Part shown: positions 21,749 to 62,832 of the stretch, one piece after another | Layout of the letters: every line of letters begins with the position of its first letter | Numbering within the stretch: the stretch's first letter is position 1 | From: Syntrophorhabdaceae bacterium | GTDB lineage: Bacteria > Desulfobacterota > Syntrophorhabdia > Syntrophorhabdales > Syntrophorhabdaceae | DNA length: 64,000 nucleotides | Reading direction: 5' to 3' | Assembly: GCA_963665295.1 (NCBI GenBank) | Contig: OY762209.1 | Location: 4,416,001 to 4,480,000, forward strand | Program-made: the position numbers and the translations under genes | Notes under the pieces: generated by a model | What the model saw: only the letters and a program-made list of their open reading frames with translations | The model's database searches: none | Told to the model about the DNA's origin: nothing

Positions 21749-23050
21749 ATGAGTAAAGACTACCATCTCCGCATGGGTCCCGCGGAACAAGAGTACTTCG
21801 CCCTGCCAAAGAAATGGAGTCCTTTGCCTTTTTCTGATATCCGAAGCGACTCACCGAAGCCCTCGGTAGGGCAGATGACCCGCGACGCCCTCTCGAGACC
21901 CGCAAAGACGGCCCCTCTTAAGGATTTGGTTGCCGATGCGAAGAAGATCGCCATTATAATCGACGACTGTACCCGCCCCACGCCTGTCTCCGGTATCCTT
22001 GAGGTGCTGCTTCCCTATCTGGAGGACAACGGTCACAATCGCGCGGACATCACCATCGTGGTTGCCCTCGGCACTCACGCTCCGGTGCCGGCGGAGGATC
22101 TTAAGGTCCGGGTGGGAAGCGATGTGGTGGCCGGTTATCGCATCGTACAGCATAACTCCCGCCAAGTGGACCTTACACCCGTCCTCCTACCCGACAACGG
22201 TATGGTGGTGGGGATAAACCCCGAGGTAGCAGGGGCCGACGCAAAAATTGGGATAAGTTCGATTTTGCCCCACCCCATGGCGGGGTACGGGGGCGGACCA
22301 AAGATCGTGATGCCCGGGGTATCGGACTTTGAGTTTATCCGTGCCCACCATATGAAGCAAACCATAGCCCCCGGATCGTATGCGGGGAACACGACAGGAA
22401 ACCCTTTTCACGAAGGGTGTTTGAAAGTAGCCCGCGCAGTAGGACTCGATTTTTCCATAAACTGCGTGTATAACCGACAGGGGGAGATTGTCCGCATCCT
22501 GGGTGGCGGACTTGACGCTGCTTTCGGAGCGGCGGTGGATGTGTGTCTGGAGGAACTGGGGATAAGATTTGAGGAAAAGGTCGATATAACGATTGCATCA
22601 ACCTACCCTCATACGCACGCCCATCAGTTTATCAAGGGTCTGAACGCCGCCGACGTGGTTACCAGGGAAGATGGTGCCATCTTGCTCGCCGTGCCCACCC
22701 TGACACGGCTGCCCGGTGATTTTCTCAACTCCTTCAACCTGGTAAGAGAAAGGTCTCACAATAAGCCTGTCGTTTATATGAAAGAGGCTATGTCTCGCGG
22801 GATGCCCTTCCTGCCGGAAAAACCTCTGGAGTTCAATATGGCCATGAAATGCGCGGTTATCAGGCCGGGAATACGGACCATACTTGTATCGCCCATGATT
22901 TCCGAGACTGAAGCCCGTACCATGGGGTTCGAGTACGCCCCTTCCGTTTCCGCGGGAGTGGACATGCTCGAAGCTTCATACCCCGAAGCGCGGGTTGCAA
23001 TATTTCCTTCAGGAGGACTCATCGTCCCCATAACCGCCTGGGAAAGATGA
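21749..23050 (+). CDS. larA: Nickel-pincer-dependent lactate racemase family protein (LarA-like)
   Basis: IDDCTRPTP, ALGTH, HPMAGYGGGPKIVMPG, H, NPFH. Confidence 0.88.
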   Translation: MSKDYHLRMGPAEQEYFALPKKWSPLPFSDIRSDSPKPSVGQMTRDALSRPAKTAPLKDLVADAKKIAIIIDDCTRPTPVSGILEVLLPYLEDNGHNRADITIVVALGTHAPVPAEDLKVRVGSDVVAGYRIVQHNSRQVDLTPVLLPDNGMVVGINPEVAGADAKIGISSILPHPMAGYGGGPKIVMPGVSDFEFIRAHHMKQTIAPGSYAGNTTGNPFHEGCLKVARAVGLDFSINCVYNRQGEIVRILGGGLDAAFGAAVDVCLEELGIRFEEKVDITIASTYPHTHAHQFIKGLNAADVVTREDGAILLAVPTLTRLPGDFLNSFNLVRERSHNKPVVYMKEAMSRGMPFLPEKPLEFNMAMKCAVIRPGIRTILVSPMISETEARTMGFEYAPSVSAGVDMLEASYPEARVAIFPSGGLIVPITAWER

Positions 23051-23078: not shown

Positions 23079-23627
23079 CTACCGGTCCCGGTTCGTCGTT
23101 CCTCTCTCGGAATAGGCCGCGCCTCTTCTCCTGCGGCCCCTCCACCCCTTGATAACATCACGGACCGCCCGAAGGACTCCGGGAAGGGCGGCCTCAACCG
23201 GCCCGGAAAGGTCAAGCCCGTAGTCAATGCTGGCGGGCTCGACACCGATCACGCTTATCTCCGATAGTCTGCTCCTGTCGATCATATGGAGTGCATTGAT
23301 GATAGAGAGTTCGTGGAGAGACGCCGGGATGCCTCCCTCGTCGATATCGTCTCCCACAGCCCTGTAGACTGTACCAGGAACTCCACCCGCTTTCATGGCG
23401 TCGATGAGCAGAATCCTTTCCGCCCACTCCAGGAGGTACATGGCGTCAAAGACCGCGCAGCCCACCTCCGCCACCCGGATGCCGGCTGCGACAGGTCTGC
23501 GAAGCAGCCTCACCGCATGGACCCCCACCCCGTCGTCGCGGAGAAGGAGGTTGCCAAGGCCGGCAACAAGGATCCGTGGTTCCCTTCCTTTTGCCGCTTC
23601 GGCTCGTATCCTTTTCTTCCGTCTCAT
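23079..23627 (-). CDS. Hydrogenase maturation protease (HybD/HycI family)
   Basis: GLGNLLLRDDGVG, IDA, SLHE, GVEP, LS.PV; divergent from the hydrogenase genes. Confidence 0.92.
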   Translation of the reverse strand: MRRKKRIRAEAAKGREPRILVAGLGNLLLRDDGVGVHAVRLLRRPVAAGIRVAEVGCAVFDAMYLLEWAERILLIDAMKAGGVPGTVYRAVGDDIDEGGIPASLHELSIINALHMIDRSRLSEISVIGVEPASIDYGLDLSGPVEAALPGVLRAVRDVIKGWRGRRRRGAAYSERGTTNRDR

Positions 23628-24217
23628 TATATACCCGCCTTCACTCAAGAAAAGGGGCAAGCCGGGACGGCGCGGAGGAATAGGATGTGTCACGACGCCG
23701 TCTGAAAAATGGCATTCATACTTTATACTATAAGAGCTGTCCTCCTGTTGGTAAAGGTAACCGGGAGTCCACCCGGAACAGGTCATATGCATCCCCCCCT
23801 TTTGACTCTGCTTTCGCCATGGCTTATTTAATATACCATACTGAGAAATGGATTTATCCCTTTCGAAGTGTCTACTTTAATTCTGATCTAAAGGAGTCCT
23901 TTCCGATGGAGAAGAGACCAGGTGCCATAGCAATACTGTTGTCAAACCGGGTAAGCGCTTTTCACATCACCTCACTCCTCACCAGTTTCGCGGAACTTGT
24001 TTCAGCGCAGCAGGGCGTTCCTCTGCGCGACAATCAGGTTAATGTTGTCTCTCTCGTCCCCTCAAAGGTGCGCTGCCTTCCGCAGATTCGAAGGGCTATG
24101 GAGGCGAGGCAGGCTCTTGCCAGCCTATCACCATATATATTACTCCTCCATTCATGTTCTAACATCCTGTTTTTATTGTTTTTATATGCTCTTAATATCC
24201 CACTGTTTACAATATAC

Positions 24218-24414: not shown

Positions 24415-25323
24415 ATGAATAATGTTTCCCGCCGCGACTTTTTGAAGTATTGCGGGTTAGGGGCCGCGGCCCTGGGTCTTAGCATGTCGGATCTGGGACG
24501 CCTTGAAAAGGCCTTTGCAAACCCGACCGGCCCATCGGTGATCTGGCTCCAGGGAACCGGCTGCACCGGATGTTCGGAATCCTTTCTCAACAGGATCTCG
24601 ACTTCCAGCCCCAAGACCGCGGCCGCCGTTCTCGTCGACTCCATCAACCTCGTCTATCACCCTAACCTCATGGGCCCCGCGGGCCAGGAAGCGGTGGCCG
24701 AAGCGGAGGCCGCTTACAACAAAGGAGGGTATGTACTCGCAGTCGAAGGAGGGATTCCCACGGCCTTTGGCGGAGCCGCGTGCATGGCGTGGACATACAA
24801 CAACGTTGAGGTTACTTTCGAACACGCGGTGCGTGACCTTGCGGACCGTGCCGCGGCGATCCTTTGTATTGGAACGTGCGCGTCTTTCGGCGGCATTCCC
24901 GCCGCGCCGCCCAACCCGGCAGGCGTCATGGGAGTCGGGGAACTCACGGGAAGACCTACCATCAATATTGCGGGGTGCCCGACACACCCCGATTGGATCG
25001 TGTGGGCCGTGGTGCAGCTTATACTCGGCAATCCGATCCCCCTTGATTCATCCGGACGCCCCACTCAGTTCTTCAGCAACACGGTGCACAGCCAGTGTCC
25101 GCGCTACGGGACGGAAAAAGCGGAGACTTTCGGAGAGGACTACCACTGTCTCATGGATCTCGGGTGCCGCGGACCCCGGACCATGTCGAACTGCCCCCAG
25201 CAAAGGTGGAATAATCAGGCCAACTGGTGCGTTGACGCCAATGGGCCATGCATAGGGTGTACCGAGCCGACATACCCCGGTACTCAGTCATTCTATACCC
25301 AGGAAGGCAAAGGAGGTACGTAA
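24415..25323 (+). CDS. [NiFe]-hydrogenase small subunit, Tat-exported
   Basis: SRRDFLK Tat motif; CTGC, GTCA, GCP, HSQC...CL..LGC, C...WC...CIGC; no C-terminal anchor. Confidence 0.95.
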   Translation: MNNVSRRDFLKYCGLGAAALGLSMSDLGRLEKAFANPTGPSVIWLQGTGCTGCSESFLNRISTSSPKTAAAVLVDSINLVYHPNLMGPAGQEAVAEAEAAYNKGGYVLAVEGGIPTAFGGAACMAWTYNNVEVTFEHAVRDLADRAAAILCIGTCASFGGIPAAPPNPAGVMGVGELTGRPTINIAGCPTHPDWIVWAVVQLILGNPIPLDSSGRPTQFFSNTVHSQCPRYGTEKAETFGEDYHCLMDLGCRGPRTMSNCPQQRWNNQANWCVDANGPCIGCTEPTYPGTQSFYTQEGKGGT

Positions 25324-26753
25324 TGTCAACAGTCAAGATAGTAGACCCTGTCACACGCCTGGAAGGTCATCTTAAAATAGAGGTCACCATAGACACGGTC
25401 AACAGTACGCAGCAAGTCGTTGATGCACGGGCCACGGGCACCATGTTCCGCGGGTTCGAGCAGATCCTTGTGGGCAGAGCGCCCCAGGATGCTCAGCATA
25501 TCACCCAGAGAATCTGCGGCGTCTGCCCCGTTCCCCACGGCATTGCATCCGTACTTGCCCAGGACAAAGCATTCAAGGTCACTCCTCCCGCCAATGCGAT
25601 CGTTATGCGCAATCTGGTCCTCGGCGCGAATTTTATCCAGTCCCATATACTCCACTTCTATCACCTTGCCCTTCAGGATTATGTGGACGGACCAGCCATG
25701 CCGCCGTGGCAGCCTTCATGGAATGTGGACAAACGCATCAGCGGCACCGGCGCCACAAGCCTGGTGAACAATTACGTGGCGGCCCTCGACATGACAAGGA
25801 AAGCTCACGAGATGGGCGCCCTTTTCGGAGGACGCATGCCCGATCCCGTGGCGTACGTCGCGGGAGGCTTTACTGCAACCCCAAGGCCGGACCGCATTTT
25901 GAAATATCAGTCATACCTGGCCGAATTAATCCCTTTCATCAGGAACACCTATCTTCCCGATGTGACCGGCTTGAGCCAGGCATATCCGGATTATTCGAGT
26001 ATCGGCACCGGATACGGAAACCTTCTTTCTTTTGGGGTCTTCGATCTCGATGCGGCGGGGGCGAACAAGCTCCTGAAGCGCGGGAGATCAGCAGGCGGAT
26101 CGCAGACGGTAAGCTCGGTTGATGTGAATCAGATATCGGAAGCGATCAATCATTCCTGGTATAAGGATTCGTCTTCCAGCCGGAAACCTTCGGCAGGCCA
26201 GACGAATCCCAGTTACCCCAAGACAGGGGCCTATTCATGGCTCAAAGCGCCCCGTTATGGCGGAAAACCCTATGAGGCGGGGCCTCTCGCGCGAATGTGG
26301 GTAAACGGGGATTACCGCCGTGGTATCTCCGTCATGGACCGACATCTGGCCAGGGCCCAGGAGGCTCTAAAAATAGCCGGCGCCCTTCAATCGTGGGTGA
26401 CGCAGCTGCAACCCGGAGGCCCTGTCTATACCGCCCATACACCGGCCGCCACCGCGACCTCGTACGGACTTACCGAAGCGCCTCGGGGCGCGCTGGGACA
26501 CTGGCTCCAGATTGCCGCTGGCAAGATTTCACGTTATCAGATCATTACACCCACATGTTGGAACGCCTCCCCCAGGGACGGCTCAAATAAACCGGGGCCG
26601 ATAGAAAAGGCGCTCGTGGGCACTCCCGTAATCAGCATCGACGAACCCGTTGAAGTTTTGAGGATTATCCATTCCTTCGACCCCTGCCTTTCCTGCGCGG
26701 TCCATGTATCGAGACCCAAAGAAAATGCAAAGGTTCACGTTGTCTACACATAG
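25323..26753 (+). CDS. [NiFe]-hydrogenase large subunit (group 1a-like)
   Basis: DPVTRLEGH, L1 QRICGVCPVPH, EAPRGALGH, L2 FDPCLSCAVH plus a cleavable tail. Starts at the TAATG overlap. Confidence 0.95.
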   Translation: MSTVKIVDPVTRLEGHLKIEVTIDTVNSTQQVVDARATGTMFRGFEQILVGRAPQDAQHITQRICGVCPVPHGIASVLAQDKAFKVTPPANAIVMRNLVLGANFIQSHILHFYHLALQDYVDGPAMPPWQPSWNVDKRISGTGATSLVNNYVAALDMTRKAHEMGALFGGRMPDPVAYVAGGFTATPRPDRILKYQSYLAELIPFIRNTYLPDVTGLSQAYPDYSSIGTGYGNLLSFGVFDLDAAGANKLLKRGRSAGGSQTVSSVDVNQISEAINHSWYKDSSSSRKPSAGQTNPSYPKTGAYSWLKAPRYGGKPYEAGPLARMWVNGDYRRGISVMDRHLARAQEALKIAGALQSWVTQLQPGGPVYTAHTPAATATSYGLTEAPRGALGHWLQIAAGKISRYQIITPTCWNASPRDGSNKPGPIEKALVGTPVISIDEPVEVLRIIHSFDPCLSCAVHVSRPKENAKVHVVYT

Positions 26754-26802: not shown

Positions 26803-28893
26803 ATGAAAAGACGAAAATTAACGACAGTTCTGACCGTGGCCTTTGTGACAATAATTGCAGGGCTGGCTTTCGGCGTAGGTTCCTATCTTACTCAATTCAA
26901 CACCCGTTACGGCACATCGGGCAGCGCTCTCGACTCGTGTAACCTGTGCCATCCAGGCGGCGCTACTTCGCAACTCAACGCCTACGCGAGTGCCTACGTG
27001 AGTGCCGGCCACAATTTTGCCTCTGTCGAGTCCCTGGACTCCGACGGGGACGGCTACACAAACCTCACCGAGATTAACGCGCGTACCAATCCGGGCGACG
27101 CTGCCAGTCATCCGGTCGCGGACGCGACGCCTCCGGTGGTTACGGCCTTCACCATACCCGCCACATCGGGTTCCCTTGTGGTTGCCATCAACAGTTTTAC
27201 CGCGACGGACAACGTAAGCGTAACCGGCTACCTCGTGACAGAGACGGCCCAGAAGCCCCTGGCCGCCGCAGCGGGCTGGACCTCTACACCTCCCGCAAAC
27301 CATACCTTCACCACCGCGGGTGTCAAGACGCTTTACGCATGGGCAAAGGACGCCGCGGGTAATGTCTCTTCCACCACGGTGAGCGCCTCCGTTACCATCA
27401 CCCTTGCCGATGCGACACCCCCCACGGTCACCGCTTTCACGATCCCTGTATCGTCGGCCTCCCTGACCGTGACAATCAGCGCCTTCACCGCTACGGACAA
27501 TGTGGGAGTGACGGGCTACCTTGTGACGGAAACGTCCACAAAGCCCCTTGCTTCCGCGTCGGGATGGAGTGCGACACGGCCGGCAAGTTACGCCTGTACT
27601 TCGGGCGGCGCAAAGACGCTTTACGCATGGGCCAAGGACGCCGCGGGTAATGTCTCCACCGGTGTGGTGAACGCCACTGTCAACATCACGGTTTCCGATA
27701 TGACGCCCCCCCTGATTACGGCTTTTGTCATACCCTCTGCCTCAAGTTCTCTCGTAATCACCATTACCAGCTTTACCGCAACGGACAACGTGGGAGTGAC
27801 GGGCTATCTCTTGACCACAACCTCTACGCCACCTTCGCCTACCGGCGCGGGCTGGACCGCAACGCCACCGGGAAGCTATACCTTTGTTTCTACGGGAGTG
27901 AAAACGCTTTACGCATGGGCCAAGGACGCTGCGGGTAATGTCTCCACCGGTGTGAGCCAGACCGTCAGCATCGTATCCGGCGACACCATACCACCGAACA
28001 TCACCAACTTCTCCCTTACCCCTTCGGCCGAGACGTTAAAGGTGCCTGTAGTCGCGTTCACCGCAACGGACGACGTGGCCGTTACGGGTTATATGCTTAC
28101 AGAGACCGCAAAAACTCCTCTTCCCACGGCAGCCGGCTGGAGCACCACTCCTCCCGCAAGCTACACCTTCACCTCGGAAGGACTCAAGGCACTTTACGCC
28201 TGGGCCAAGGACGCCGCGGGGAATGTATCGTTGCCGTGGAGCGACATGGTGGACATCGTGGTTACGGACGTTACGCCTCCCGACGTGATGGACTTCAGCC
28301 TCCGCAGCCCCAGTGATTCCCTTATCGTACCTATTACCGGCTTCACTGCCATAGACGACGTGGAAGTCACAGGCTATCTCGTAACGAAGAGTGCGTCGCG
28401 GCCAAAAGCGAATGCGGCCGGATGGAGCGCAAGCCCCCCGACCAGCTACACCTTCCCTCTTCATACGACGGGCACCAAAACCCTCTATGGCTGGGCAAAA
28501 GATGCCGCGGGGAATGTGTCCGATGGTCTTTCGGAACAGGTAGTCATCCAGATCGATGATCGTACTCCGCCGACGGTAACGGAGTTCAGGATACCTTCGT
28601 CATCGAGCAGCCTGACTGTCAGGCTCAGGACCTTCACCGCCACGGATAACAAGGTGATTGCAGGCTATATGGTAACCACGTCGTCCGCAAAACCGTCATG
28701 GTCGTCGCCCAAGTGGAACGCCGCTCCTCCCGCGAGCTTCACGTTTACGTCCCAGGGGACAAAAACACTCTACCCCTGGGTCAGGGACGCCGCGGGGAAT
28801 GTGTCCGGCAAATTTGTGGGCGCCGCCATGAAGGTCCGCATCTCTCTCGACCCTGAAGAAGAGGACAGGAACGAGCACGGCGATGACGATTAA
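26803..28893 (+). CDS. Secreted protein with one CxxCH heme c motif, a Ca-binding DxDxDG motif and six Ig-like repeats
   Basis: Signal peptide; CNLCH at 26938-26952; DSDGDGYTNLTE; repeats ending AWAKDAAGNVS. Confidence 0.85.
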   Translation: MKRRKLTTVLTVAFVTIIAGLAFGVGSYLTQFNTRYGTSGSALDSCNLCHPGGATSQLNAYASAYVSAGHNFASVESLDSDGDGYTNLTEINARTNPGDAASHPVADATPPVVTAFTIPATSGSLVVAINSFTATDNVSVTGYLVTETAQKPLAAAAGWTSTPPANHTFTTAGVKTLYAWAKDAAGNVSSTTVSASVTITLADATPPTVTAFTIPVSSASLTVTISAFTATDNVGVTGYLVTETSTKPLASASGWSATRPASYACTSGGAKTLYAWAKDAAGNVSTGVVNATVNITVSDMTPPLITAFVIPSASSSLVITITSFTATDNVGVTGYLLTTTSTPPSPTGAGWTATPPGSYTFVSTGVKTLYAWAKDAAGNVSTGVSQTVSIVSGDTIPPNITNFSLTPSAETLKVPVVAFTATDDVAVTGYMLTETAKTPLPTAAGWSTTPPASYTFTSEGLKALYAWAKDAAGNVSLPWSDMVDIVVTDVTPPDVMDFSLRSPSDSLIVPITGFTAIDDVEVTGYLVTKSASRPKANAAGWSASPPTSYTFPLHTTGTKTLYGWAKDAAGNVSDGLSEQVVIQIDDRTPPTVTEFRIPSSSSSLTVRLRTFTATDNKVIAGYMVTTSSAKPSWSSPKWNAAPPASFTFTSQGTKTLYPWVRDAAGNVSGKFVGAAMKVRISLDPEEEDRNEHGDDD
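27121..28850 (+). repeat. Six tandem coding repeats of about 95 aa (about 288 nt)
   Basis: DxTPP...FTATDN.GVTGY.VT...W...PP.SYTF...KTLYAWAKDAAGNVS six times; DNA core GGCCAAGGACGCCGCGGG(T/G)AATGT. Confidence 0.95.
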
Positions 28894-29117: not shown

Positions 29118-29432
29118 ATGTCCGTTATGCTGGAGTTTGCCATGTTTCCCACGGATAAAGGGGACAGCGTGAGTGAATACGTAAGCAGAATAATTAAAAT
29201 GATCGACGAAAGCGGCGTATCCTATAAGTTGACGCCCATGGGAACCATTGTGGAAGTAGAGACCCTCGATGAAGCGCTTCGCATCGTCGGTAAAGCCTAC
29301 GGTCAGCTTGAACCCGATTGCGGGAGGATCTATTCCTCACTGAAACTGGACATACGCCAGGGAAAAAGCGAGAGGTTGCAGCAGAAAATAGCATCGATAG
29401 AGGGGAAGATAGGGCGGGAAGTCAAGAAGTAG
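29118..29432 (+). CDS. MTH1187/YkoF-like thiamine-binding family protein
   Basis: FP...SVS.YV...SG..Y.LTPMGT.VE...K.D.R. Confidence 0.88.
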   Translation: MSVMLEFAMFPTDKGDSVSEYVSRIIKMIDESGVSYKLTPMGTIVEVETLDEALRIVGKAYGQLEPDCGRIYSSLKLDIRQGKSERLQQKIASIEGKIGREVKK

Positions 29433-29524: not shown

Positions 29525-29938
29525 ATGCATGAATGGGCATTGGCTCAATCAATCGTTGCCACCATCGCTTCAGAAATTGAAAAAAACGGGCTGTGCAAAG
29601 TATCGAGAGTTGAAGTCAAGGTGGGGGAACTGCAGCAGATCGACCTCGACATCTTCAGGTCTCTCATCGAGAGCGTTCTCTCAACCTATGACCTTCCTGT
29701 AGACATGTCTCAAATAGTCGTCTCCAAAGACAAGACTACCTTCAAATGCAGAATCTGCGGCTCGGAGTGGGGTTTTGCCGATACCGGCGATACCCTTACC
29801 CATGATGAAGGCGAGTCGATCCATTTCATCCCCGAAGTGGCGCACATTTACATGCGTTGTCCCGGGTGCGGAAGCCCGGACTTCGATATCTCGAAGGGAC
29901 GCGGCGTGTGGATCGAGTCCATCGAAGGAGAAACATGA
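29525..29938 (+). CDS. hypA: Hydrogenase nickel chaperone HypA (long, Thermococcales-like form)
   Basis: MHEWALA, VGEL, CRIC...IHFIPEV...CPGC, G.G. Confidence 0.92.
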   Translation: MHEWALAQSIVATIASEIEKNGLCKVSRVEVKVGELQQIDLDIFRSLIESVLSTYDLPVDMSQIVVSKDKTTFKCRICGSEWGFADTGDTLTHDEGESIHFIPEVAHIYMRCPGCGSPDFDISKGRGVWIESIEGET

Positions 29939-30696
29939 TAGACCCCAGACCTGCCGTAATTCAGGAGAGACTTGCCCATACCCGACGGATACTTGCCGTG
30001 TCAGGCGGTAAGGGAGGGATCGGCAAAAGCTCGATTGCCTGCCTTCTCGCCCTCTGCCTCTCCCGCAAAGGCCATAAAACAGGACTTTTCGACCTTGATT
30101 TCGCAGGCCCCACCGACCACGTGCTGCTGGGCATCAAGGGGGTCGGTCCCCACGAGATGAACGGGATTGTCCCTCCCGTGGTTCATGGGATCAGCTTCAT
30201 GTCCCTCACCTACTTTACCGGCGACCACCCATCCCCCTTCAGAGGTTCCGATATATCAAATTCCCTTGTTGAACTCCTTGCCATCACCCAATGGAACGAT
30301 CTCGATTTCCTGGTCATCGACATGCCTCCAGGGCTTGGCGACACTATCCTCGATGTAATAAGACTGATCAGACGGATGGAATTCCTCGCGGTAACTACAA
30401 GTTCGAAACTCGCCCTGGAAATAGTGAAGAAGGAGTTAACCATGCTGAAGGAACTCGGCATCCCGATCCTGGGCGTGGTTGAGAATATGAAGAGAAATTC
30501 CGACCCGCCGGTGGGACGACAGATATCCCCCCTTCAGGTCCCGTTTCTCGGTTCCATAGATTTCGATCCCGGTTTTGAGGAGACGCTGGGGGATATCGAC
30601 CGTTTGATAGGAACCCGATTCATGAAGCAATTGGAACTGATAGTCGATCGGGGCATGGTTGTCTCAGAAGAGGACCGCCACCGGCCGGAGCCCTGA
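29935..30696 (+). CDS. Mrp/MinD-family ATPase, probably ATPase-type HypB
   Basis: GGKGGIGKS, DLDF.G, DMPPG.GD, VENM with no following CxxC; ATGA-coupled to hypA. Confidence 0.82.
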   Translation: MIDPRPAVIQERLAHTRRILAVSGGKGGIGKSSIACLLALCLSRKGHKTGLFDLDFAGPTDHVLLGIKGVGPHEMNGIVPPVVHGISFMSLTYFTGDHPSPFRGSDISNSLVELLAITQWNDLDFLVIDMPPGLGDTILDVIRLIRRMEFLAVTTSSKLALEIVKKELTMLKELGIPILGVVENMKRNSDPPVGRQISPLQVPFLGSIDFDPGFEETLGDIDRLIGTRFMKQLELIVDRGMVVSEEDRHRPEP

Positions 30697-30745: not shown

Positions 30746-31501
30746 ATGGATGCGGTAAGAGAAGAATTCAAAGACGGTATATACACAATCATATTGAACA
30801 GGCCCGAAAAGAAGAACGCCATGGATTCCGAGCTTTTGCCGGCTCTTTTCCAGGCGCTTCAAAATGCCAGGGCGAAAAAGAGTTCGGTGGTCATTATCCG
30901 GGGCGCGGGAAAAGCGTTCTGCGCCGGTGGGGACATCGTTGAATTCCGGGAAAGCGAAGATACAGGCTCCCGTATCGATTACATGGCGGACGTACTCCAC
31001 AAAAGCATCGTCCTTATCAGACAGATGGACGCCATCGTGGTAGCGGCGGTGGAAGGTGTAGCGGTGGGAGCAGGCCTGGGCCTTGCCCTTGCCTGCGATG
31101 TTACCGCCGCGTCAAGAAATACGGTCATGAACATGGGATACAGACGGATCGGCCTCACCCCTGACGGCGGAGGCAGCTTCTTTCTCCCCCGCATCATAGG
31201 GGCAAAAAAATTCAGCGAGCTCTATCTTTTCTCCCGCAATATCACCATGGACGAGGCCAAGGACATGGGTCTCGTGAACTTCGTGTGGGAGGAAAGTGAG
31301 TTTGAGGAAAGATTGGAGAAGATGGTAGCAGACCTCACCGCCCTTCCCATGGAGACCATCGGGCATTTCAAGGACCTCGTGAACCACGCCGTGTTGTCGG
31401 GGCTTGAGGTCCACCTCGACAAGGAGCGGTTCTATGTATCCGAATTGGGAGGAAACAAACAATTCAAAGAGCGGCTGGACCAGTTCTTCAAGAAGAAATA
31501 G
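30746..31501 (+). CDS. Enoyl-CoA hydratase/isomerase (crotonase) family protein
   Basis: LNRPEKKNA, AFCAGGD, GAGLGLALACD, GLTPDGG. Confidence 0.92.
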   Translation: MDAVREEFKDGIYTIILNRPEKKNAMDSELLPALFQALQNARAKKSSVVIIRGAGKAFCAGGDIVEFRESEDTGSRIDYMADVLHKSIVLIRQMDAIVVAAVEGVAVGAGLGLALACDVTAASRNTVMNMGYRRIGLTPDGGGSFFLPRIIGAKKFSELYLFSRNITMDEAKDMGLVNFVWEESEFEERLEKMVADLTALPMETIGHFKDLVNHAVLSGLEVHLDKERFYVSELGGNKQFKERLDQFFKKK

Positions 31502-31570: not shown

Positions 31571-32938
31571 ATGAAGATGCTCTATCTTTTTTCCATTTTT
31601 GGATACATCTGTCTTTTATGGTTCGTCAGTATCTATGTGACGAGAAGATCGAGATCGACCGAGGCCTATCTTGTGGCATCCGGGAGCCTTTCGGTCCCAT
31701 TCATTTCAGTCCTCATCGCGGGCACCTGGATCGGTGGGGTATCGGTCGTCGGGATGGCCCAGGGCGCTTACATCCACGGGATAAGCGCCCTTTGGTTCCA
31801 GGCAGGCATCTGGATCGCCATGTGCATAACCGCCCTCCTGCTCCCCCGGATCATGCGGGGCAGGAAAACCTACTCCATACTTGATGTAGTAGGAAAACTC
31901 TATGACGCGAAGACAGCGCGTCTCGCAGGCATTCTTCAGCTCTTTTTCTCCATCTGGGTGGTTACCATGCAGATCGTGGGAGGGGGAGCCATACTGTCGG
32001 TCATTCTGGGTGAACGGATATCGTTCAGGGAAGGGATGGTGCTGACTGCCGCCGTCTTCACGCTGTATAACGTGGTAGGAGGTTTCGTCGCCACCGCATA
32101 CACAAATCTGGTCCATATCTGCGCCATCTTCCTGGGTATATTCCTTGGGGGCTTTTACGTCATATTCAATACCGGATCTCTCGCCCGGATGGCTGTCGAC
32201 ACCGGTGTCTTTCACCCCTTCGGGGATCTCGGGTTAGCCCAGGCCTTGAGTTGGGCTTATATCAACCTTACACTGGGAGTCCTTGCTCAGCCTGTAATCA
32301 ACACGGCTTCCTCCGCAAAGACTCTTTCCGATGGAAGAAAGGGGATTCTTATAGGTAATTTTATCGCCATCCCCGTGGTGGTCATGGCAGCCCTCTGCGG
32401 CATTGCGGCAAAGGACCTCTTTCCCTCCATCCCTTCCCTTGCCGCTTTACCCCGGCTCCTGGATGTCATGCCTCCCGCCATAGGCGTCTTCTTTCTTCTT
32501 GGAATGTGGGCTCCCCTCATGAGTTCAGGTTCTCCTTTTCTGATGGGTGCCACGACCCTGGCGGTTAAGGGCTACATAGGTCCCGCTTTCAGGATCGAAA
32601 ACGATAAAAGACTGCTTCTCGTATCGCGGATAACAACCCTGACGATAGGGGCCCTTTCGCTCTTCCTCGGTCTCTTCGTGAAAGAGATCCTGAGGGAAAT
32701 CACTTGGCTCGCCGTCTTTTTGAGCGCAATAGTTTACATCGTATTCGCGGGCTGGGCAGGAAACAGGGTGTCGAGCGCCCACGCCTTTATCGCTCTCCTC
32801 GGGACCATAGCGATAGTAGCCGCCTCCTTTGCCTTTGGATTCTACAAGCTCATACACCCCGTCTGGCCGGTTACCGTCTACATCGCGATAGTGACGGCCC
32901 CGGACCTCCTCCGGCCCCGGCGGGACAAGGCGAAGTAG
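31571..32938 (+). CDS. Sodium:solute symporter (SSS) family protein
   Basis: YLVA...TWIGG, GG..ATAYT, MSS; about 13 TM helices. Confidence 0.88.
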   Translation: MKMLYLFSIFGYICLLWFVSIYVTRRSRSTEAYLVASGSLSVPFISVLIAGTWIGGVSVVGMAQGAYIHGISALWFQAGIWIAMCITALLLPRIMRGRKTYSILDVVGKLYDAKTARLAGILQLFFSIWVVTMQIVGGGAILSVILGERISFREGMVLTAAVFTLYNVVGGFVATAYTNLVHICAIFLGIFLGGFYVIFNTGSLARMAVDTGVFHPFGDLGLAQALSWAYINLTLGVLAQPVINTASSAKTLSDGRKGILIGNFIAIPVVVMAALCGIAAKDLFPSIPSLAALPRLLDVMPPAIGVFFLLGMWAPLMSSGSPFLMGATTLAVKGYIGPAFRIENDKRLLLVSRITTLTIGALSLFLGLFVKEILREITWLAVFLSAIVYIVFAGWAGNRVSSAHAFIALLGTIAIVAASFAFGFYKLIHPVWPVTVYIAIVTAPDLLRPRRDKAK

Positions 32939-33212: not shown

Positions 33213-33956
33213 ATGATCAGCAGCATCGGCAGCAACAGCAGTTCACTCTATGAGTACCTAATGCAGTTGAGGGCGTCCGGTTCATCAACGTCATCAACGT
33301 CATCCACATCAACGACGGACGATCTTTTCAGCAAGATCGATACGAGCGGAGACGGGACGGTAAGCGAAGACGAGTTCAACACGTTCCGGTCGGAAATGGA
33401 AGCCCAGTTTAAGAACTCCGTAATGACATCGAAGTACGATTCCACGGGAGCCGCCACCTCAACCGACGATCTTTTCAGTAAGGTCGACTCGGACGGGGAC
33501 GGCACGGTAAGCGAAGACGAGTTCGGTATGTTCCGGTCGGCCATGGAATCCCACGGAGCTCCTCCTCCACCGCCGCCGCCGGACTCTTCGGCCTCATCCT
33601 CGTCAAGTTCGTCCATCGACGACCTTTTCGGCAAGATCGATACGGATGGGGACGGCACGGTAAGCGAGGACGAGTTCGGCACCTTCCTCGCCGGCATGGA
33701 GGCTGCAATTGAAAACGTCCTGCTTCAGGGTCAGGACAGTACAAGCATCGATTCCGACACATCCGTCGGCAGCACCGCCGAAGCCGCTTCGTCGGCAACA
33801 AGCGTCAGTACGGCCGCAACAGATTCAACGTCGGACCAGACGGACGGCGCAAGCCTTTTCGCGTCCCTTATTATGGAAGCAATAACCAAGTATATGACCT
33901 TCTCGCAGCCGCAGCAGGGTTCAACGTCTACAGGTCAGATAAGTGTAGCGGCTTAA
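33213..33956 (+). CDS. Ser/Thr-rich EF-hand calcium-binding protein (three EF-hand loops)
   Basis: DTSGDGTVSEDE, DSDGDGTVSEDE, DTDGDGTVSEDE; poly-Pro linker; AGGAGG SD. Confidence 0.88.
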   Translation: MISSIGSNSSSLYEYLMQLRASGSSTSSTSSTSTTDDLFSKIDTSGDGTVSEDEFNTFRSEMEAQFKNSVMTSKYDSTGAATSTDDLFSKVDSDGDGTVSEDEFGMFRSAMESHGAPPPPPPPDSSASSSSSSSIDDLFGKIDTDGDGTVSEDEFGTFLAGMEAAIENVLLQGQDSTSIDSDTSVGSTAEAASSATSVSTAATDSTSDQTDGASLFASLIMEAITKYMTFSQPQQGSTSTGQISVAA

Positions 33957-42473: not shown

Positions 42474-44394
42474 CCGAAGTTCCCCCTGTGAAATCCCCCC
42501 AATATCACTCTATCCCGTTGAAATGACGGGAATAGGGTGATAATCATATCTTCTACTTGTTGCCATGTAATAGTGCATTATGTACTTGACATGTAGGTAA
42601 GATATTTGCTATATATGTTCCATGTACATCGAAAGCATCCCCAACCGCAACTCCCGGCCCGCCATCCTCTTGAGGGAGGCATGGAGGGAAGGCAAAAAGA
42701 TAAAGAAGAAGACAGTCGCAAACCTCACTGATTGGCCGGAAGAGAAGATCGAGCTCTTGAGGCGTGTATTGAAAGGGGAGTCTCTCGTCTCTCCGAAGGA
42801 AGCCTTTAAGGTTGAGCAGTCTCTCCCCCACGGCCATGTGGAGGCCATACTCGGGACAATAAAGAAGCTTGGCCTTGATACGGTCATTGCCTCGAAGCCT
42901 GGAAGGGAGAGAGACCTCGTAATCGCCATGATCGTGGAACGCCTCATCCACCCCTCATCGAAATTAGCAACTACGAGGCTCTGGCATACTACTTCGGTGG
43001 CGGAGGAACTCTCGGTTGCAGATGCCGATGAGGACGAACTCTATGATGCCCTGGACTGGCTTTTGGCAAGACAGGAGCGGATCGAGAAGAAGCTGGCGAA
43101 TAAGCACCTTACCGAGGGCTCGCTCGTGCTCTACGATGTGACGAGCAGTTACTACGAGGGCCACACCTGTCCCCTTGCGCAGTTCGGCCATGACCGGGAT
43201 GAAAAGGGAAAGAGGATCATCGTCTATGGAGTACTCACCGATCACGAAGGCCGACCTGTTGCAGTTACCGTCTATCCGGGGAATACGGGCGATCCCTCTA
43301 CCATTCCCGACCAGACGGCAAAGCTCAAAGAAAGATTCGGTCTCGATCACCTCGTCCTCGTGGGCGACAGGGGCATGCTTACGGAGACACAGATTACAAA
43401 GATAAAGGAGATGCCCGGCATAGGGTGGATATCGGCCCTCAGGTCTTCCGCCATACGCGAGCTTGTGGGACAGGGGAGCATCCAGATGTCCCTCTTCGAT
43501 ACCCAGGACTTTGCGGAAATCACCTCTCCCGAGTATCCGGGGGAAAGGCTCATCGCTTGCTTCAACCCCCTTCTTGCCGAAGAGAGAAAGAGGAAAAGAA
43601 ACGCGCTCCTCGATGTGACGGAAAAGAAGTTGTCCTCCATTGTACGGGCGGTCGGGAGAAGGACAAGGACGCCTCTTTCCGCAGCGGAGATAGGGAAGAA
43701 AGTCGGCGCGGTAGTCAACGATCACAAGATGGCGAAGCACTTTATCCTTACCATCGGAGACGGGTCCTTCTCATTCGCCCGGAACGAGGAGTCAATCACC
43801 GAAGAAGAAGCCCTCGACGGGATCTATGTGATCCGTACGAGTGAACCAGCCCTTCCTCCCGCCGATGTGGTACGGAACTACAAGAACCTTGCCCGGGTAG
43901 AGCGGGCCTTCAGGACCTTGAAGGGCATCGATCTTCTCGTCCGTCCCATTCACCACCGTACCGAGGATCACGTGCGAGCCCACATCTTTCTCTGCACCCT
44001 CGCCTATTACGTAGAGTGGCATATGAGGGAGGCCCTTACGCCGCTGCTCTTCGACGATGAGGAGCTTCCCCTCTCACGAACGACGAGAGACCCGGTAAAG
44101 CCCGCGGAGTCATCTTCTTCCGCAAAGAAAAAGAAGACCACCAAGCTCACCCCTGACGGCCTTCCCGTCCAGAGCTTCCGTACCCTCCTTGCCGCACTGG
44201 GGACCCGATGCAAAAACCGGTGCAGGATGGTTTTGGACTCCATGGCCCCGGCCTTCACCCTTCTTACTGATCCGACACCTCTCCAGGCCCGCGCCCTTGC
44301 CCTCCTCGGACTGTAGCCAGTAACGGGAAATCAATTTCTGCCATAATCATTGGAATATCAAGGTGATGGGTTAATATTGGGCGGGGAACTTCGG
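42474..44394 (+). mobile_element. IS1634-family insertion sequence
   Basis: 12-bp terminal inverted repeats CCGAAGTTCCCC / GGGGAACTTCGG flanked by TTTAAA on both sides (42468-73, 44395-400). Confidence 0.9.
42622..44316 (+). CDS. IS1634-family DDE transposase
   Basis: LYDVTSSYYEG, GN..D, VGDRG, YK.L..VERAFR..K, RPI.H...RAH. Confidence 0.93.
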   Translation: MYIESIPNRNSRPAILLREAWREGKKIKKKTVANLTDWPEEKIELLRRVLKGESLVSPKEAFKVEQSLPHGHVEAILGTIKKLGLDTVIASKPGRERDLVIAMIVERLIHPSSKLATTRLWHTTSVAEELSVADADEDELYDALDWLLARQERIEKKLANKHLTEGSLVLYDVTSSYYEGHTCPLAQFGHDRDEKGKRIIVYGVLTDHEGRPVAVTVYPGNTGDPSTIPDQTAKLKERFGLDHLVLVGDRGMLTETQITKIKEMPGIGWISALRSSAIRELVGQGSIQMSLFDTQDFAEITSPEYPGERLIACFNPLLAEERKRKRNALLDVTEKKLSSIVRAVGRRTRTPLSAAEIGKKVGAVVNDHKMAKHFILTIGDGSFSFARNEESITEEEALDGIYVIRTSEPALPPADVVRNYKNLARVERAFRTLKGIDLLVRPIHHRTEDHVRAHIFLCTLAYYVEWHMREALTPLLFDDEELPLSRTTRDPVKPAESSSSAKKKKTTKLTPDGLPVQSFRTLLAALGTRCKNRCRMVLDSMAPAFTLLTDPTPLQARALALLGL

Positions 44395-57942: not shown

Positions 57943-59541
57943 ATGAATTTCGCAAGTTTTTGCCAACTCAATGCAAGCAAGTTTCCGGACCGTGAATTTC
58001 TCATCGAAAGTTATCCGTCGAAAAAGGAGCGGCGGGTAATGACGTGGGGGGCGTTGGAGGAGCAGACGAACAAAGTAGCCAACTATCTGGTCACGGAGTG
58101 CGGCATCAAGAAAGGCGACGTTGTACAGCACCTGCTTACGAATAACCTGGAATGGTATGTGACATATATGGCGGTTCTTAAGGCAGGCGCGGTGGTAAGC
58201 CCGCTCAATTTCCGCTTCGCCAGCGGCGACATCAAATATGCCTGCGACGTGACGAAAAGTAAGGTCTTTATTCTGGGAGAAGCCTTCATCTCCAAGGTCG
58301 AGCCTATAATGAACGAAATGCCTTATTGCAAACACTATATATGTGTCGGCGGCAAAGCCCCGGACAGCATGAAAGACTACAAGGAGATCATGGCCGCCGG
58401 TGATGTCTCCCCGTTTCTCGCGGAGACATCGGACGACGACATGGCGGAACTCATGTTCACCTCCGGCACCACGGGCGCGCCAAAGCCGGTATCCCATACA
58501 CACGGCACACTCTTCTGGATCGGCATCGGGAACGCTCTCACTTATAATCTGGGGTTCAGAAGCGTCTACCTGGCTCCCCACCCCTTCTATCACAGCGGAA
58601 CGCTCTTTCTCTCCTTCCCGTGTTACATCGCCGCGGGCAAAATTCTCATGCCCATGGAGTTGCAGCCGGAGAATTACCTGAGATCCCTCGCCGACGAGCA
58701 GTGCACGGGTGGATGGAACACGGTACCCACCTGGGCCGACTTGTTGAGCGCCATCAAATCGGGTCGCATCGACCTGAAAGATTATGACCTATCCGCCATG
58801 AGACACATCGAGATCGGGGCCCAGCCTGTTCCCTACGCCCTCCTCGAAGATTCGAAGAAGATATTCCCGGGCCTGCCCATCGCCAATATATACGGCATTA
58901 CTGAAGGCGGAGGCGGCGGGTTGACCAACTGTTATGATGAAGACATTATGAGGAAGCCGGGCTCCATCGGTAAGGCGACCGCCTTTATGGAAGCCAAAGT
59001 GGTTGCCGACAACGGCGATGAACTGCCCGCCGGAGGAATCGGTGAACTGGTCCTCAAAGGACCCAGGCTGATGAAGGAATATGCCTTCAACAAGGAGATG
59101 ACCGCGAAGACGATCATCGACGGCTGGCTCCACACGGGCGATCTCGCTTACAAAGATGACGAAGGGTTCATCTTCTTTGCCGACCGGGCCAAGGACCTCA
59201 TCATCCGAGGCGGCGAGAACATATTCCCTGCAGAGATCGAGGATGCCCTCCGCAAGCATCCGAAGATTCAGGACGCGGCAGTGCTCGGTTATCCCCACCC
59301 CCGACTCGTGGAGATAGTCATGGCCATTATCCAGGTAAGAGATGGAGAAAGCCTCACGGATGAGGAAGTAATAGGCTTCGTCAAAGACCGGGGACTCGCC
59401 AAATACAAATGGCCCGAAAAGCTTGTCTACACCGTTATTCCCAGGAATCCTGCCGGGAAGATCGAAAAACCGAAATTGAGAGACATGTATGTGAAACCCG
59501 CGAAAGAAGCCTTGGAGAAAGAGTTCAAGAAGAACGCTTAA
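57943..59541 (+). CDS. AMP-forming acyl-CoA synthetase
   Basis: FTSGTTGAPK, YGITE, HTGD, RGGENIFP.EIE, GK. Confidence 0.93.
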   Translation: MNFASFCQLNASKFPDREFLIESYPSKKERRVMTWGALEEQTNKVANYLVTECGIKKGDVVQHLLTNNLEWYVTYMAVLKAGAVVSPLNFRFASGDIKYACDVTKSKVFILGEAFISKVEPIMNEMPYCKHYICVGGKAPDSMKDYKEIMAAGDVSPFLAETSDDDMAELMFTSGTTGAPKPVSHTHGTLFWIGIGNALTYNLGFRSVYLAPHPFYHSGTLFLSFPCYIAAGKILMPMELQPENYLRSLADEQCTGGWNTVPTWADLLSAIKSGRIDLKDYDLSAMRHIEIGAQPVPYALLEDSKKIFPGLPIANIYGITEGGGGGLTNCYDEDIMRKPGSIGKATAFMEAKVVADNGDELPAGGIGELVLKGPRLMKEYAFNKEMTAKTIIDGWLHTGDLAYKDDEGFIFFADRAKDLIIRGGENIFPAEIEDALRKHPKIQDAAVLGYPHPRLVEIVMAIIQVRDGESLTDEEVIGFVKDRGLAKYKWPEKLVYTVIPRNPAGKIEKPKLRDMYVKPAKEALEKEFKKNA

Positions 59542-59660
59542 ACCGGCACCGACCACCCCCCCCAATCCCCTTGGGCAGAGGAAGGGGGGGGTGAAAATAT
59601 AGAAGGAGAAACAACTGTTTTAGTACTTGCAAAATTGAAATACGAACTAAGGAGGGTTCC

Positions 59661-61268
59661 ATGAGAAACGGGCACTGGATGACAGCAAAAGACGTACTAA
59701 GAGTAAATGCGTCTAAATGGCCGAACAAGGTCGGCATTAAAGACCTCTACAAGAGCTACACATTCAAACAGTGGGATGAGAGAGCCGCAAGGCTCGCGAA
59801 TGCCCTTGCCGACATGGGCATGAAAAAAGGCGACAGGTTCGCGGTCCTCGCGTACAACTGCGTGGAGTGGATGGAGATCTACGGAGCAGCAGCGAAGGGA
59901 GGCTTCGTATGCGTGCCCCTCATGTTCAGGCTCGCCCCGGTGGAGATGGAATACAATATCAACCACAGCGAGTGCAAGGTCTTCATCGTTCAGGGCGGCT
60001 TTGACGGCGCGGACGGAAAAGAGTTCCCCTGGATCAAACAGGTCACGGAAATGAAGAAGAGTCTCCCCACGGTAAAAGGATACATCTCCTTTGCCCTTAA
60101 GAACGAGACCTATGACGGTTTCACTCCTTACGAGGAAGCCCTCGCCAAGGCGAGCGCCGAGGAGCCGAAGACGGTGGTGGACGCCGACGATCCGTGGGTG
60201 ATCATGTACACGGGCGGTACCACAGGCAAACCGAAGGGCGTGGTCAAGAGCCACCTCAACCTCTTCTCCCAGTACTTCATCATGATCTACGACCACCAGT
60301 TCAACGATAACGATGTAAACCTTCTCGTCATGCCCTGCTGCCACGTAAACTCCCTCTTCTACTCCTTCGTGGCCACATGGGTAGGCGGCGCGGTAATGTG
60401 CTACAACATGGTAAGCTTCAACGCAGAGAACCTCTTAAAGACCTTCTCGGACCACAAGGTAACCTTTACCTCCCTGGTCCCGACCCACTACATCATGATG
60501 CTCGCCCTGCCGGACGACGTCAAGAAGAAATACGACCTCACCAGCGTAAAGAAACTCCTTATCTCCTCCGCCCCGGCGAGAAGAGACACGAAGCTCGGCG
60601 TCCTCGAGATGTTCTCCAACTCGGAACTGTACGAGGCCTACGGCTCCACGGAAGCGGGTATCGTGACGGTACTGAAACCCAACGAACAGCTAGTCAAGCT
60701 CGGCTCCTGCGGACGCGAGGTTATCGGTACGGACCTGATCGAGCTCTATGACGAAGACGGGAAGCTCGTGACGAAACCGAACGAAGTAGGCGAACTCTAT
60801 TCAAGAAGCCCCATGCTCTTCGAAGAGTACTGGAAAGACCCTGAGAAGACCGCCGCAGCCATGAAAGGCGAATTCTTCAGCGCCGGCGACATGGCGTACA
60901 AGGACGAGGACGGCTACATCATCCTCGTAGACAGAAAGGCCAACATGATCATCTCAGGCGGCGAGAACATCTTCCCCTCCGAGGTTGAGAACTGCGTAGG
61001 CGGTTATGCCAAGGTAAAGGACGTGGCGGTAATCGGCGTACCTCATGAGAAATGGGGCGAGCAGGTAACCGCAGTCATCGTCCTTCATGAAGGGCAAGCT
61101 GCCACAGCCGAGGAAATATCGGCCCATTGCAAGGGCAAGATCGCGGGATTCAAGGTACCCAAGAGCATCATCTTCATCAAAGACGAAGAGATGCCGAGAA
61201 GCGGCGCCGGCAAGATACTCCACCGGATGCTGAGAGAGAAATACGGCAAGTGGGCCGACCATCAGTAA
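59661..61268 (+). CDS. AMP-forming acyl-CoA synthetase
   Basis: YTGGTTGKPKG, YGSTE, GD, SGGENIFP.EVE, GK. Confidence 0.93.
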   Translation: MRNGHWMTAKDVLRVNASKWPNKVGIKDLYKSYTFKQWDERAARLANALADMGMKKGDRFAVLAYNCVEWMEIYGAAAKGGFVCVPLMFRLAPVEMEYNINHSECKVFIVQGGFDGADGKEFPWIKQVTEMKKSLPTVKGYISFALKNETYDGFTPYEEALAKASAEEPKTVVDADDPWVIMYTGGTTGKPKGVVKSHLNLFSQYFIMIYDHQFNDNDVNLLVMPCCHVNSLFYSFVATWVGGAVMCYNMVSFNAENLLKTFSDHKVTFTSLVPTHYIMMLALPDDVKKKYDLTSVKKLLISSAPARRDTKLGVLEMFSNSELYEAYGSTEAGIVTVLKPNEQLVKLGSCGREVIGTDLIELYDEDGKLVTKPNEVGELYSRSPMLFEEYWKDPEKTAAAMKGEFFSAGDMAYKDEDGYIILVDRKANMIISGGENIFPSEVENCVGGYAKVKDVAVIGVPHEKWGEQVTAVIVLHEGQAATAEEISAHCKGKIAGFKVPKSIIFIKDEEMPRSGAGKILHRMLREKYGKWADHQ

Positions 61269-61565
61269 GAAGTTAAGGCTTCCGGGACTGCCGGGCAGGC
61301 CCCGGGCATTCGATATGTACGGGCAGGCCGCCCTGTTTCACGATGCGATAAATCGGGGGTAATGCAGCTGATTGCGTGAAACGAAACAGAAGGGCGCGGG
61401 AGGAACACAGGGCGGTTCGAATGTTTGGGACAACGGCGCCGGACCTTGGCAAAATAGCTCCATCATCCTGGGGATACGCGATTTGACTGCCACGGTGTCA
61501 AGCCGTGGGAATCTTAAAACGGCACGTTCTGTCCGACAAAGCGGGGCAGGCGAAAGAGGGGAAAA

Positions 61566-62726: not shown

Positions 62727-62832
62727 GCGGGCGAATGACAGATAACTCAAGGCTGAAGGTCGGACCTTTTGCCCTTAACCATTCAGCCCCTGCTGAGGCT
62801 GATGATTCAATATAGAGACGGAGGAGAATCTC

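Follow-up and report, generated by a model that had tools for sequence, protein, structure and literature searches.

The stretch analysed here, hereafter the window, comprises 64,000 nucleotides of a Syntrophorhabdaceae bacterium (contig OY762209.1, positions 4,416,001 to 4,480,000) and carries two adjoining genes for a candidate nickel-delivery pair, the metallochaperone HypA and a P-loop ATPase of the Mrp/MinD family. The genome is a single 5.5-Mb contig and is 98% complete. Its cysteinyl-tRNA synthetase finds its best named matches, at 68-80% identity, in metagenome-assembled genomes labelled Syntrophorhabdaceae, Syntrophorhabdus and 'Syntrophobacterales', in keeping with the family. Because the window also encodes MlaA, C, D and E together with a sigma-54 activator, the host is a diderm bacterium. 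The pair and the element joining its two genes are located as follows (aa, amino acids).

29525-29938, + strand: hypA, encoding a long-insert (Thermococcales-type) nickel metallochaperone of 137 aa (PF01155, NF003008, PDB 3a43).
29935-30696, + strand: gene for an ATPase-type HypB (Mrp/MinD family) of 253 aa (PDB 3vx3, tree, no CxxC).
29927-29932, + strand: GGAGAA, ribosome-binding-like, in the 3' end of hypA and 2 bases ahead of the ATPase ATG.

As listed, the open reading frame of the ATPase opens at a TTG at position 29857, and an in-frame ATG at 29935 yields a protein beginning MIDPRPAV. The latter start was chosen, giving the gene 29935-30696, since this ATG overlaps the hypA stop codon as ATGA and GGAGAA stands just 5' of it. 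The two elements are also consistent with translational coupling of hypA and the ATPase gene, a function predicted from their arrangement. HypA begins MHEWALAQ, thus with the MHE motif, and has two cysteine pairs, CRIC and CPGC, which would form its zinc site (C75/C78/C112/C115); the insert between both pairs contains ESIHFIPEVAH, including His100. The translated ATPase contains GGKGGIGKSS, DLDFAGPTDHVLLG, PFRGSDIS and DMPPGLGD, with a deviant Walker A motif (GKGGIGKS) and a DPR motif near the N-terminus. No CxxC follows VVENMKRNSDPPVG in its translation, and none occurs in the segment VVENMKRNSD. A preliminary description of this DNA had quoted motifs for HypA and the ATPase, among them a long HypA insert with IHFIPEV between the cysteine pairs; every one of them is present in the translations.

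Profile searches place HypA within PF01155 (74.8 bits) and above the cut-off of NF003008 (150.2 bits; cut-off 125), and below that of the ordinary HypA model TIGR00100 (55.8 bits; cut-off 88.1). The ATPase matches PF10609 with 172.7 bits, over profile positions 3-185 of 246 only. It reaches the cut-off of none of the 13 NCBIfam families listed for it, scoring best with MrpORP (147.9 bits; cut-off 450) and ApbC (127.4 bits; cut-off 348), and Pfam and NCBIfam searches gave no match to PF02492 or TIGR00073, the models of the G3E GTPase domain.

In PDB searches, the nearest CHARACTERISED relatives of both proteins are the HypA and ATPase of Thermococcus kodakarensis. The ATPase matches the Mrp/MinD-family protein of that archaeon best (3vx3; also 5aun, 5auo, 5aup and 5auq), with 239.9 bits and an E value of 2.8e-70 over residues 2-233, and about 115 of 232 positions are identical (counted by eye, ~50%). 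Other entries follow at a distance: ApbC (8zkc) with 120.3 bits, Nbp35-like proteins with ~100-109 bits and MinD with at most 37. The top match of HypA is T. kodakarensis HypA (3a43; 103.3 bits, E value 1.1e-28, residues 1-134), with about 52 of 134 identities, likewise counted by eye (~39%), and HypA of Helicobacter pylori scores 23.8 bits over the first 79 residues only. With the Pfam scores, these E values indicate that neither match is due to chance. Aligned with 3a43, IHFIP falls on IHFIP and the insert histidine on T. kodakarensis His98, which we take to be a ligand. Across 13 HypA sequences, M1, H2, E3, the four cysteines and H100 are invariant. Across 29 ATPase sequences, K26, K31, D53, D55 and D129 are invariant, and these residues, with GGKGGIGKSS, give the ATPase the signature lysine of the deviant Walker A motif and the Walker A' and B aspartates. 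The proposed kinship to the Thermococcus pair was thereby upheld, as both proteins are far nearer to T. kodakarensis than to any other solved protein.

The ATPase might instead be an ordinary iron-sulfur (Fe-S) cluster carrier of the Mrp/ApbC/Nbp35 kind that neighbors hypA by accident, since it belongs to PF10609 with 172.7 bits, MrpORP and ApbC top its NCBIfam list, and a close homologue bears the UniRef name 'Iron-sulfur cluster carrier protein'. However, both NCBIfam scores lie far under the curated cut-offs, and the Pfam match goes no further than position 185 of the 246-position profile. No ingroup row (0 of 83) has a CxxC in the 30 residues that follow ENM, compared with 14 of 15 Mrp outgroup rows, among them all three Mrp paralogues of the window's own genome, which are separate full-length genes lying elsewhere than the pair. 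Conversely, the N-terminal DPR motif occurs in 73 of the 83 ingroup rows and in none of the 15 outgroup rows. A careful tree of 45 rows separates an ATPase clade (36) from an Mrp clade (9) with support 100/100, and a quick tree of 98 rows recovers the same split with a value of 99 in the SH-like approximate likelihood ratio test (SH-aLRT); the rows were hand-picked from search results and include none from Thermococcales. Identity between the ATPase and bacterial and archaeal Mrp members is 33-43%, and a scan of the contig collection with generic P-loop patterns brought up 79 loci of ordinary Mrp type and a single true relative, from Methanophagales. Finally, the ATPase occurs with a long HypA in 12 of 12 genomes. 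The CxxC, the scores, the tree and this co-occurrence all contradict the carrier explanation, which is extremely improbable, and judged by the CxxC, the DPR motif and the tree, the ATPase is not an Fe-S carrier. The preliminary description had noted the missing Mrp/ApbC-type CxxC and regarded a grouping with ApbC/Nbp35 as fatal to its proposal; the motif is indeed missing throughout the ingroup, and the 100/100 split sets the ATPase apart from those carriers.

The same description had expected the ATPase to be mis-annotated, which agrees with the databases. Among the visible names of its 120 best homologues none contains HypB; they read 'P-loop NTPase', 'Iron-sulfur cluster carrier protein', 'MinD' or 'chromosome partitioning', and no NCBIfam cut-off is reached. 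These homologues show the ATPase family to be widespread in anaerobic bacteria. In addition, an October 2026 preprint (10.64898/2026.10.19.760177) describes, for certain archaea and bacteria, a gene neighborhood shared by a ParA-clade NTPase and HypA-domain proteins, and proposes that this NTPase takes the place of HypB. The case is therefore less unusual than it was first thought to be. As to identity, an archaeal-type nickel-delivery pair in a bacterium was correct, the pair being closest to that of T. kodakarensis. What the window encodes is a system already known, here in a bacterial version to which current annotation gives the wrong name. Work on T. kodakarensis established ATPase-type HypB as a recognized class, the pair is not known to have been studied outside Thermococcus, and no detailed treatment of a bacterial example of the pair was found within the literature library searched. 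What the present comparison adds to the original observation is the one-to-one matching of HypA and HypB types, the near-exclusive either/or relation of the ATPase pair with the GTPase, and the exchange of the cassette within one operon.

The distribution of the pair was followed in 96 genomes of the window's order, using the ATPase as protein query at an E value of 1e-40 or better. The window's genome yields one match at this threshold, so its own Mrp paralogues fall below it. The ATPase was found in 12 of the 96 genomes, and a HypA above the NF003008 cut-off in exactly the same 12; in each of them the ATPase directly follows the long HypA on one strand, with 2-8 bases between the matched stretches. 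One of these ATPases, from a genome of the same family (G357), is identical to a protein named at NCBI from Syntrophorhabdus sp. GTPase HypB above its cut-off is present in 30 genomes and HypD in 38, and 11 of the 12 ATPase-bearing genomes lack the GTPase. When the tables were crossed by hand, the 38 HypD genomes divided into 9 with the ATPase pair only, 24 with the GTPase only, 1 with both and 4 with neither, the last being G334 and G243 (96-99% complete) and G355 and G371 (78-80% complete); five genomes have a GTPase HypB and no HypD match. The HypA partners of the GTPase match at most positions 1-84 of the 135-position NF003008 profile (among the matches listed). Thus, HypA type matches HypB type one-to-one, and the ATPase and GTPase forms of HypB follow a near-exclusive either/or pattern. 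In a wider sample of the phylum the pair is rare: 5 of 301 genomes, every one from this order, contain the ATPase, and the same five contain long HypA, compared with 202 that contain GTPase HypB.

Two observations concern individual genomes of this survey. Both pair types, long HypA with ATPase and short HypA with GTPase HypB, occur in G303 on separate contigs (L118 and contig C274), which may represent a replacement intermediate or the service of two clients. In two genomes of the same family (L103 2651-3514 and L104 128-973), hypA is preceded by a gene for a secreted-looking protein of ~285 aa with a His/Thr-rich tail (TTHSTTTHSTTSHH) and a weak likeness to Leptospira lipoproteins; a metal-binding role for this protein is only a guess.

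The surroundings of the two pair types were compared in six regions annotated with Pfam. The genes flanking the pair in the window are the following.

29118-29432, + strand: MTH1187-family gene, left flank of the hypA-hypB cassette (PF01910, TIGR00106).
30746-31501, + strand: enoyl-CoA (coenzyme A) hydratase gene, right flank (Pfam; BLASTP to the hypA neighbors of relatives).
31571-32938, + strand: sodium:solute symporter-family gene, right flank (Pfam; BLASTP to the hypA neighbors of relatives).

In family f2 (G085) the order is hydratase, long hypA, ATPase, hypF, hypC, hypD and hypE. In family f99 (G380, G378 and G382) it is short hypA, GTPase hypB, hypF, (hypC), hypD and hypE, and beyond the operon, on the opposite strand, come two flavoprotein genes and then the same hydratase-symporter pair; G382 has an integrase gene inserted in this region. 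In family f1 (G303) the hydratase and symporter genes precede long hypA and the ATPase, compared with hypA, ATPase, hydratase and symporter in the window. By BLASTP, the window's hydratase is 49-53% and its symporter 72-75% identical to the hypA neighbors in the relatives. The strongest argument that both pairs do the same job is found here, since the A-B pair changes and the operon and its surroundings stay constant.

The flanking genes themselves were also considered as parts of the system. The hydratase was rejected as a HypX-like enzyme supplying the carbon monoxide (CO) ligand, as an orthologue is present in 90 of the 96 genomes, including genomes without hyp genes; being such a core gene, its linkage to hyp genes is positional. 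Among 60 of its 170 PDB matches none is named HypX, all being of the crotonase superfamily or crotonase fold. The hydratase is a conserved flank outside the Hyp system. The MTH1187-family gene was likewise rejected, as it stays beside the hydratase in two genomes of the same genus without hypA (G347 and G348). The hydratase-symporter pair (L114, L115, L117 and L118) is a place where hyp genes of either type adjoin in several families of the order.

Upstream of the pair, the window encodes a [NiFe] hydrogenase and a protease for its maturation:

23082-23792, - strand: hydrogenase maturation endopeptidase of the HyaD/HybD/HycI superfamily (PF01750; TIGR00072 107.4 bits, cut-off 47.45).
24415-25323, + strand: [NiFe] hydrogenase small subunit (PF14720, PF01058; TIGR00391 223.2 bits, over its cut-off; twin-arginine translocation (TAT) signal TIGR01409).
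25320-26753, + strand: [NiFe] hydrogenase large subunit, the likely nickel recipient (PF00374, 404 bits).

The local order is thus maturation protease (on the - strand), TAT small subunit, large subunit, a 696-aa repeat protein, MTH1187-family protein, hypA, ATPase, hydratase and symporter. The small subunit is predicted to be periplasmic, owing to its twin-arginine signal. For the large subunit the start at 25320 was chosen, the open reading frame as listed opening at 25248, and its translation ends in DPCLSCAVH followed by a 15-residue tail. This hydrogenase is the only PF00374 locus of the genome, lies 2.8 kb upstream of the pair and is likely its client enzyme. Elsewhere in the genome, hypD and hypF stand side by side 1.4 Mb from the pair. 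The genome has a single copy of hypA and, as had been asked of it, was searched for a GTPase HypB: none was found, the best match to TIGR00073 scoring 25.9 bits, and two weak G3E matches are MeaB (287 and 305 bits with the MeaB model). It is the ATPase that stands beside the sole hypA.

Several features of this block stand on their own. The open reading frame of the maturation protease encodes 237 aa with the protease domain at ~73-215, indicating either an inner start or an unusual N-terminal extension of 70 residues. Directly 3' of the large subunit gene (26803-28893, + strand), the 696-aa protein shows a signal-like segment at its N-terminus, a single CxxCH (CNLCH) and approximately seven repeats of ~90 residues (with TAFTIP, FTATDNV.VTGY and KTLYAWAKDAAGNVS as recurring elements). 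It matches the 'GEGP motif diheme' model (residues 41-114) and OmpL47-type domains weakly, has no counterpart in the collinear region of the same-genus genome G348, and could partner the periplasmic hydrogenase at the surface or as an electron acceptor. On the other side, a LarA-family gene (nickel-pincer-cofactor racemase-like; 21749-23050, + strand), which remains under all NCBIfam cut-offs, adjoins the protease gene. A gene for a LarA N-terminal domain also follows hypE and an enolase gene in G085 (L115 9463-9999). LarA-type genes hence lie near hyp genes in two families, and the one in the window is also kept in congeners that have no hyp genes.

The pair could serve a nickel enzyme instead of the hydrogenase or besides it, as might be suspected from the LarA-family gene in the window and the one after hypE in G085. 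Moreover, published work, including 10.64898/2026.02.25.708027, connects hypA/hypB in Acetobacterium and Pelotomaculum with an isoprene reductase that is putatively Ni-dependent. Yet the LarA-like gene is kept in same-genus genomes without hypA, ATPase and hypD, hypD accompanies the pair in 10 of the 12 genomes that bear it, the pair heads a hypFCDE operon in family f2, and it comes after the hydrogenase genes in the present genome, which together make a different or additional client quite improbable.

Taken as a whole, the two coupled genes very probably constitute the ATPase version of the module that inserts nickel during [NiFe]-hydrogenase maturation. The evidence consists of homology and conserved residues, the strict co-occurrence and adjacency of the two genes, an operon slot shared with the GTPase pair, and the lack of a GTPase HypB. 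In this module, HypA would bind Ni(II) at its N-terminal Met-His-Glu, and the ATP-bound Mrp/MinD-type HypB would dock on HypA. Docking would move the insert histidine (His100) into the nickel site and so raise the nickel affinity of HypA. ATP hydrolysis would then free HypA, which could hand its nickel to the large-subunit precursor encoded just upstream, presumably already loaded with Fe(CN)2CO by HypCDEF encoded elsewhere in the genome. The pair would thereby do the task done in most relatives by GTPase HypB and short HypA. The ATP-dependent docking and the affinity switch are inferred by analogy with the work on T. kodakarensis.

It could be speculated that the ATPase has the same role and itself binds and passes nickel, like GTPase HypB and CooC, instead of merely enhancing the affinity of HypA. 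His62 is invariant among 29 family members and other polar residues are nearly so, and PMC9164220 and PMC11672702 describe related NTPase chaperones that hold metal at the dimer interface. On the other hand, these 29 sequences share no invariant cysteine, according to the review PMC7055735 no nickel site has been identified in the T. kodakarensis HypB structure, and in the current model (PMC13202556) it is HypA that takes cytosolic nickel. A nickel-carrying ATPase is accordingly an unlikely variant, and HypA is preferred as the nickel carrier of the module.

Some observations weigh against the nickel-insertion module as proposed here, or narrow it. The HypA-ATPase interaction, the ATPase activity and the nickel binding are all predictions made from the sequences. 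The upstream enzyme may not be the sole client, the genome search for hydrogenases having covered PF00374. In addition, two genomes have the ATPase pair and no HypD was found in them; both assemblies are fragmented (G305, 95% complete in ~610 contigs; G352, 92% complete in ~290 contigs). As G303 holds both pairs, the two HypB types are not strictly exclusive. Finally, of eight archaeal long-HypA loci, the ATPase is directly next in four and 0.9 kb off in one, and three have no ATPase inside 1.5 kb.

The history of the family was read from the careful tree and the sampled genomes. One clade (95/90) unites all 12 sequences of the order with the nine nearest proteins of the database (64-74% identity) and with two sequences of Desulfotomaculia type, from Pelotomaculum propionicicum and a member of Desulfotomaculaceae. 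Six sequences from the phylum of the Methanophagales genome form a separate clade (100/100), and the WOR-3 and Hadesarchaea rows fall outside both the bacterial and the archaeal clade. A sample of 201 genomes from that archaeal phylum contained 13 with long HypA, and a sample of 201 from the phylum to which a Syntrophomonas genome belongs contained none. This thin, patchy spread in both domains, with a bacterial clade that crosses phyla, points to lateral transfer in the history of the family, whatever its root and direction. Any transfer would be old and not straight from archaea, since the nearest relatives are bacterial and include Pelotomaculum. A recent archaeal transfer into this genome was rejected, as the bacterial sequences form the 95/90 clade and the archaeal ones lie in a separate clade; the same flanks beside the pair in other families of the order also speak against it. 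Horizontal acquisition, which the preliminary description had proposed, can therefore be retained as an old event (5 of 301 genomes, all of one order) and is dropped as regards a direct archaeal source.

The site itself differs within the genus. Three other species (93-100% complete) gave no HypD, HypA or HypB match. One of them, G348, is collinear with the window over 20.6-41.3 kb and has no counterpart of the hydrogenase block at 23.1-29.1 kb; ~200 bases lie between its MTH1187 gene and the hydratase gene that comes next, and G347 has the same MTH1187-hydratase junction. Because these flanks also adjoin the pair in other families, it takes fewer assumptions to suppose that the congeners lost it than that it was newly inserted in the window's genome. 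Replacement by recombination with DNA of a relative is a possible alternative for the history of this site.

A broader reading joins these findings, and we lean towards it slightly: HypA and HypB would travel as a matched two-gene cassette, exchanged in place and spread laterally among syntrophs, and anaerobes bearing it would be mis-scored as lacking hypB. The hosts of such spread would include Syntrophorhabdaceae-like bacteria, Pelotomaculum, WOR-3 and ANME-1-type archaea. As both pairs share slot and flanking genes, the ATPase pair would be a complete in-place replacement, and because the ATPase has no annotation model, hydrogenase-bearing anaerobes would be scored as hypB-less systematically.

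Further genes of the window lie apart from these subjects. A 247-aa Ser/Thr-rich protein (33213-33956, + strand) contains three EF-hand pairs (DDLFSK.D.DGDGTVSEDEF repeats) and a poly-Pro stretch, and nothing corresponds to it in the collinear part of G348. A DDE transposase is encoded at 42622-44316 (+ strand), 12 kb downstream of hypA and the ATPase gene, and no connection to the hyp genes was seen. At 57943-63999 (+ strand), two AMP-binding CoA-ligase genes are followed by two genes of the 2-hydroxyglutaryl-CoA dehydratase D-component family, a set that fits an aromatic- or acyl-CoA-degrading syntroph.

For annotation, the consequence is that a genome inventory of this organism and its relatives would call hypB missing or tally a fourth 'Fe-S carrier', and recognizing the pair completes the maturation pathway of the hydrogen-cycling enzyme of this syntroph. 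A dedicated ATPase profile, or a rule joining an NF003008-type HypA to its neighbor, would mend many annotations. The comparison across the order provides clean comparative evidence for ATPase and GTPase pairs as functional alternatives, in that the members of a pair occur in the same genomes or in none, both types use the same operon slot, and one genome has both. The bacterial proteins can also serve to ask how general the Thermococcus 'enhancer' mechanism is.

Among known systems, CooC, which inserts nickel into CO dehydrogenase, is also a MinD/BioD-class P-loop ATPase of nickel-enzyme maturation, according to PMC9164220, and it was not found among the 23 PDB matches of the window's ATPase. 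Unlike the latter, CooC works without HypA and binds metal itself. The Mrp/ApbC/Nbp35 carriers share Pfam family and Walker A type with the ATPase; they have a CxxC after ENM, no N-terminal DPR motif and a clade of their own, and the ATPase is the opposite in each respect. The division of HypB proteins into GTPase and ATPase types is set out in PMC13202556, and ATPase HypBs are said to occur in 'some organisms' in PMC9164220. The GTPase HypB (G3E, TIGR00073) with short HypA, as in Escherichia coli and H. pylori, holds the same position in the hyp operons of sister families and presumably performs the same task. It belongs to another P-loop family, PF02492, whereas the window's ATPase matches PF10609, and its partner HypA has no insert. 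According to PMC13202556, the GTPase itself binds nickel and passes it to HypA, and in the model presented there the ATP-bound MinD-type HypB alters HypA for nickel capture.

The system most like that of the window is the HypA and ATPase-type HypB of T. kodakarensis (3a43 and 3vx3; complex 5aun), with which both proteins align over their full length. Loss of the ATPase-type HypB in that archaeon reportedly causes a hydrogenase defect that is relieved by added nickel. The two pairs share the N-terminal MHE, the four zinc cysteines, the HFIPE insert with its histidine, the deviant Walker A motif and the lack of a CxxC, and in both hypA lies directly upstream of the ATPase gene in a genome without GTPase hypB. 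They differ in that the present host is a mesophile-like diderm bacterium, that identity is only ~50% for HypB and ~39% for HypA (by eye), and that the probable client, in a system known here from sequence, is a periplasmic, group-1-like hydrogenase.

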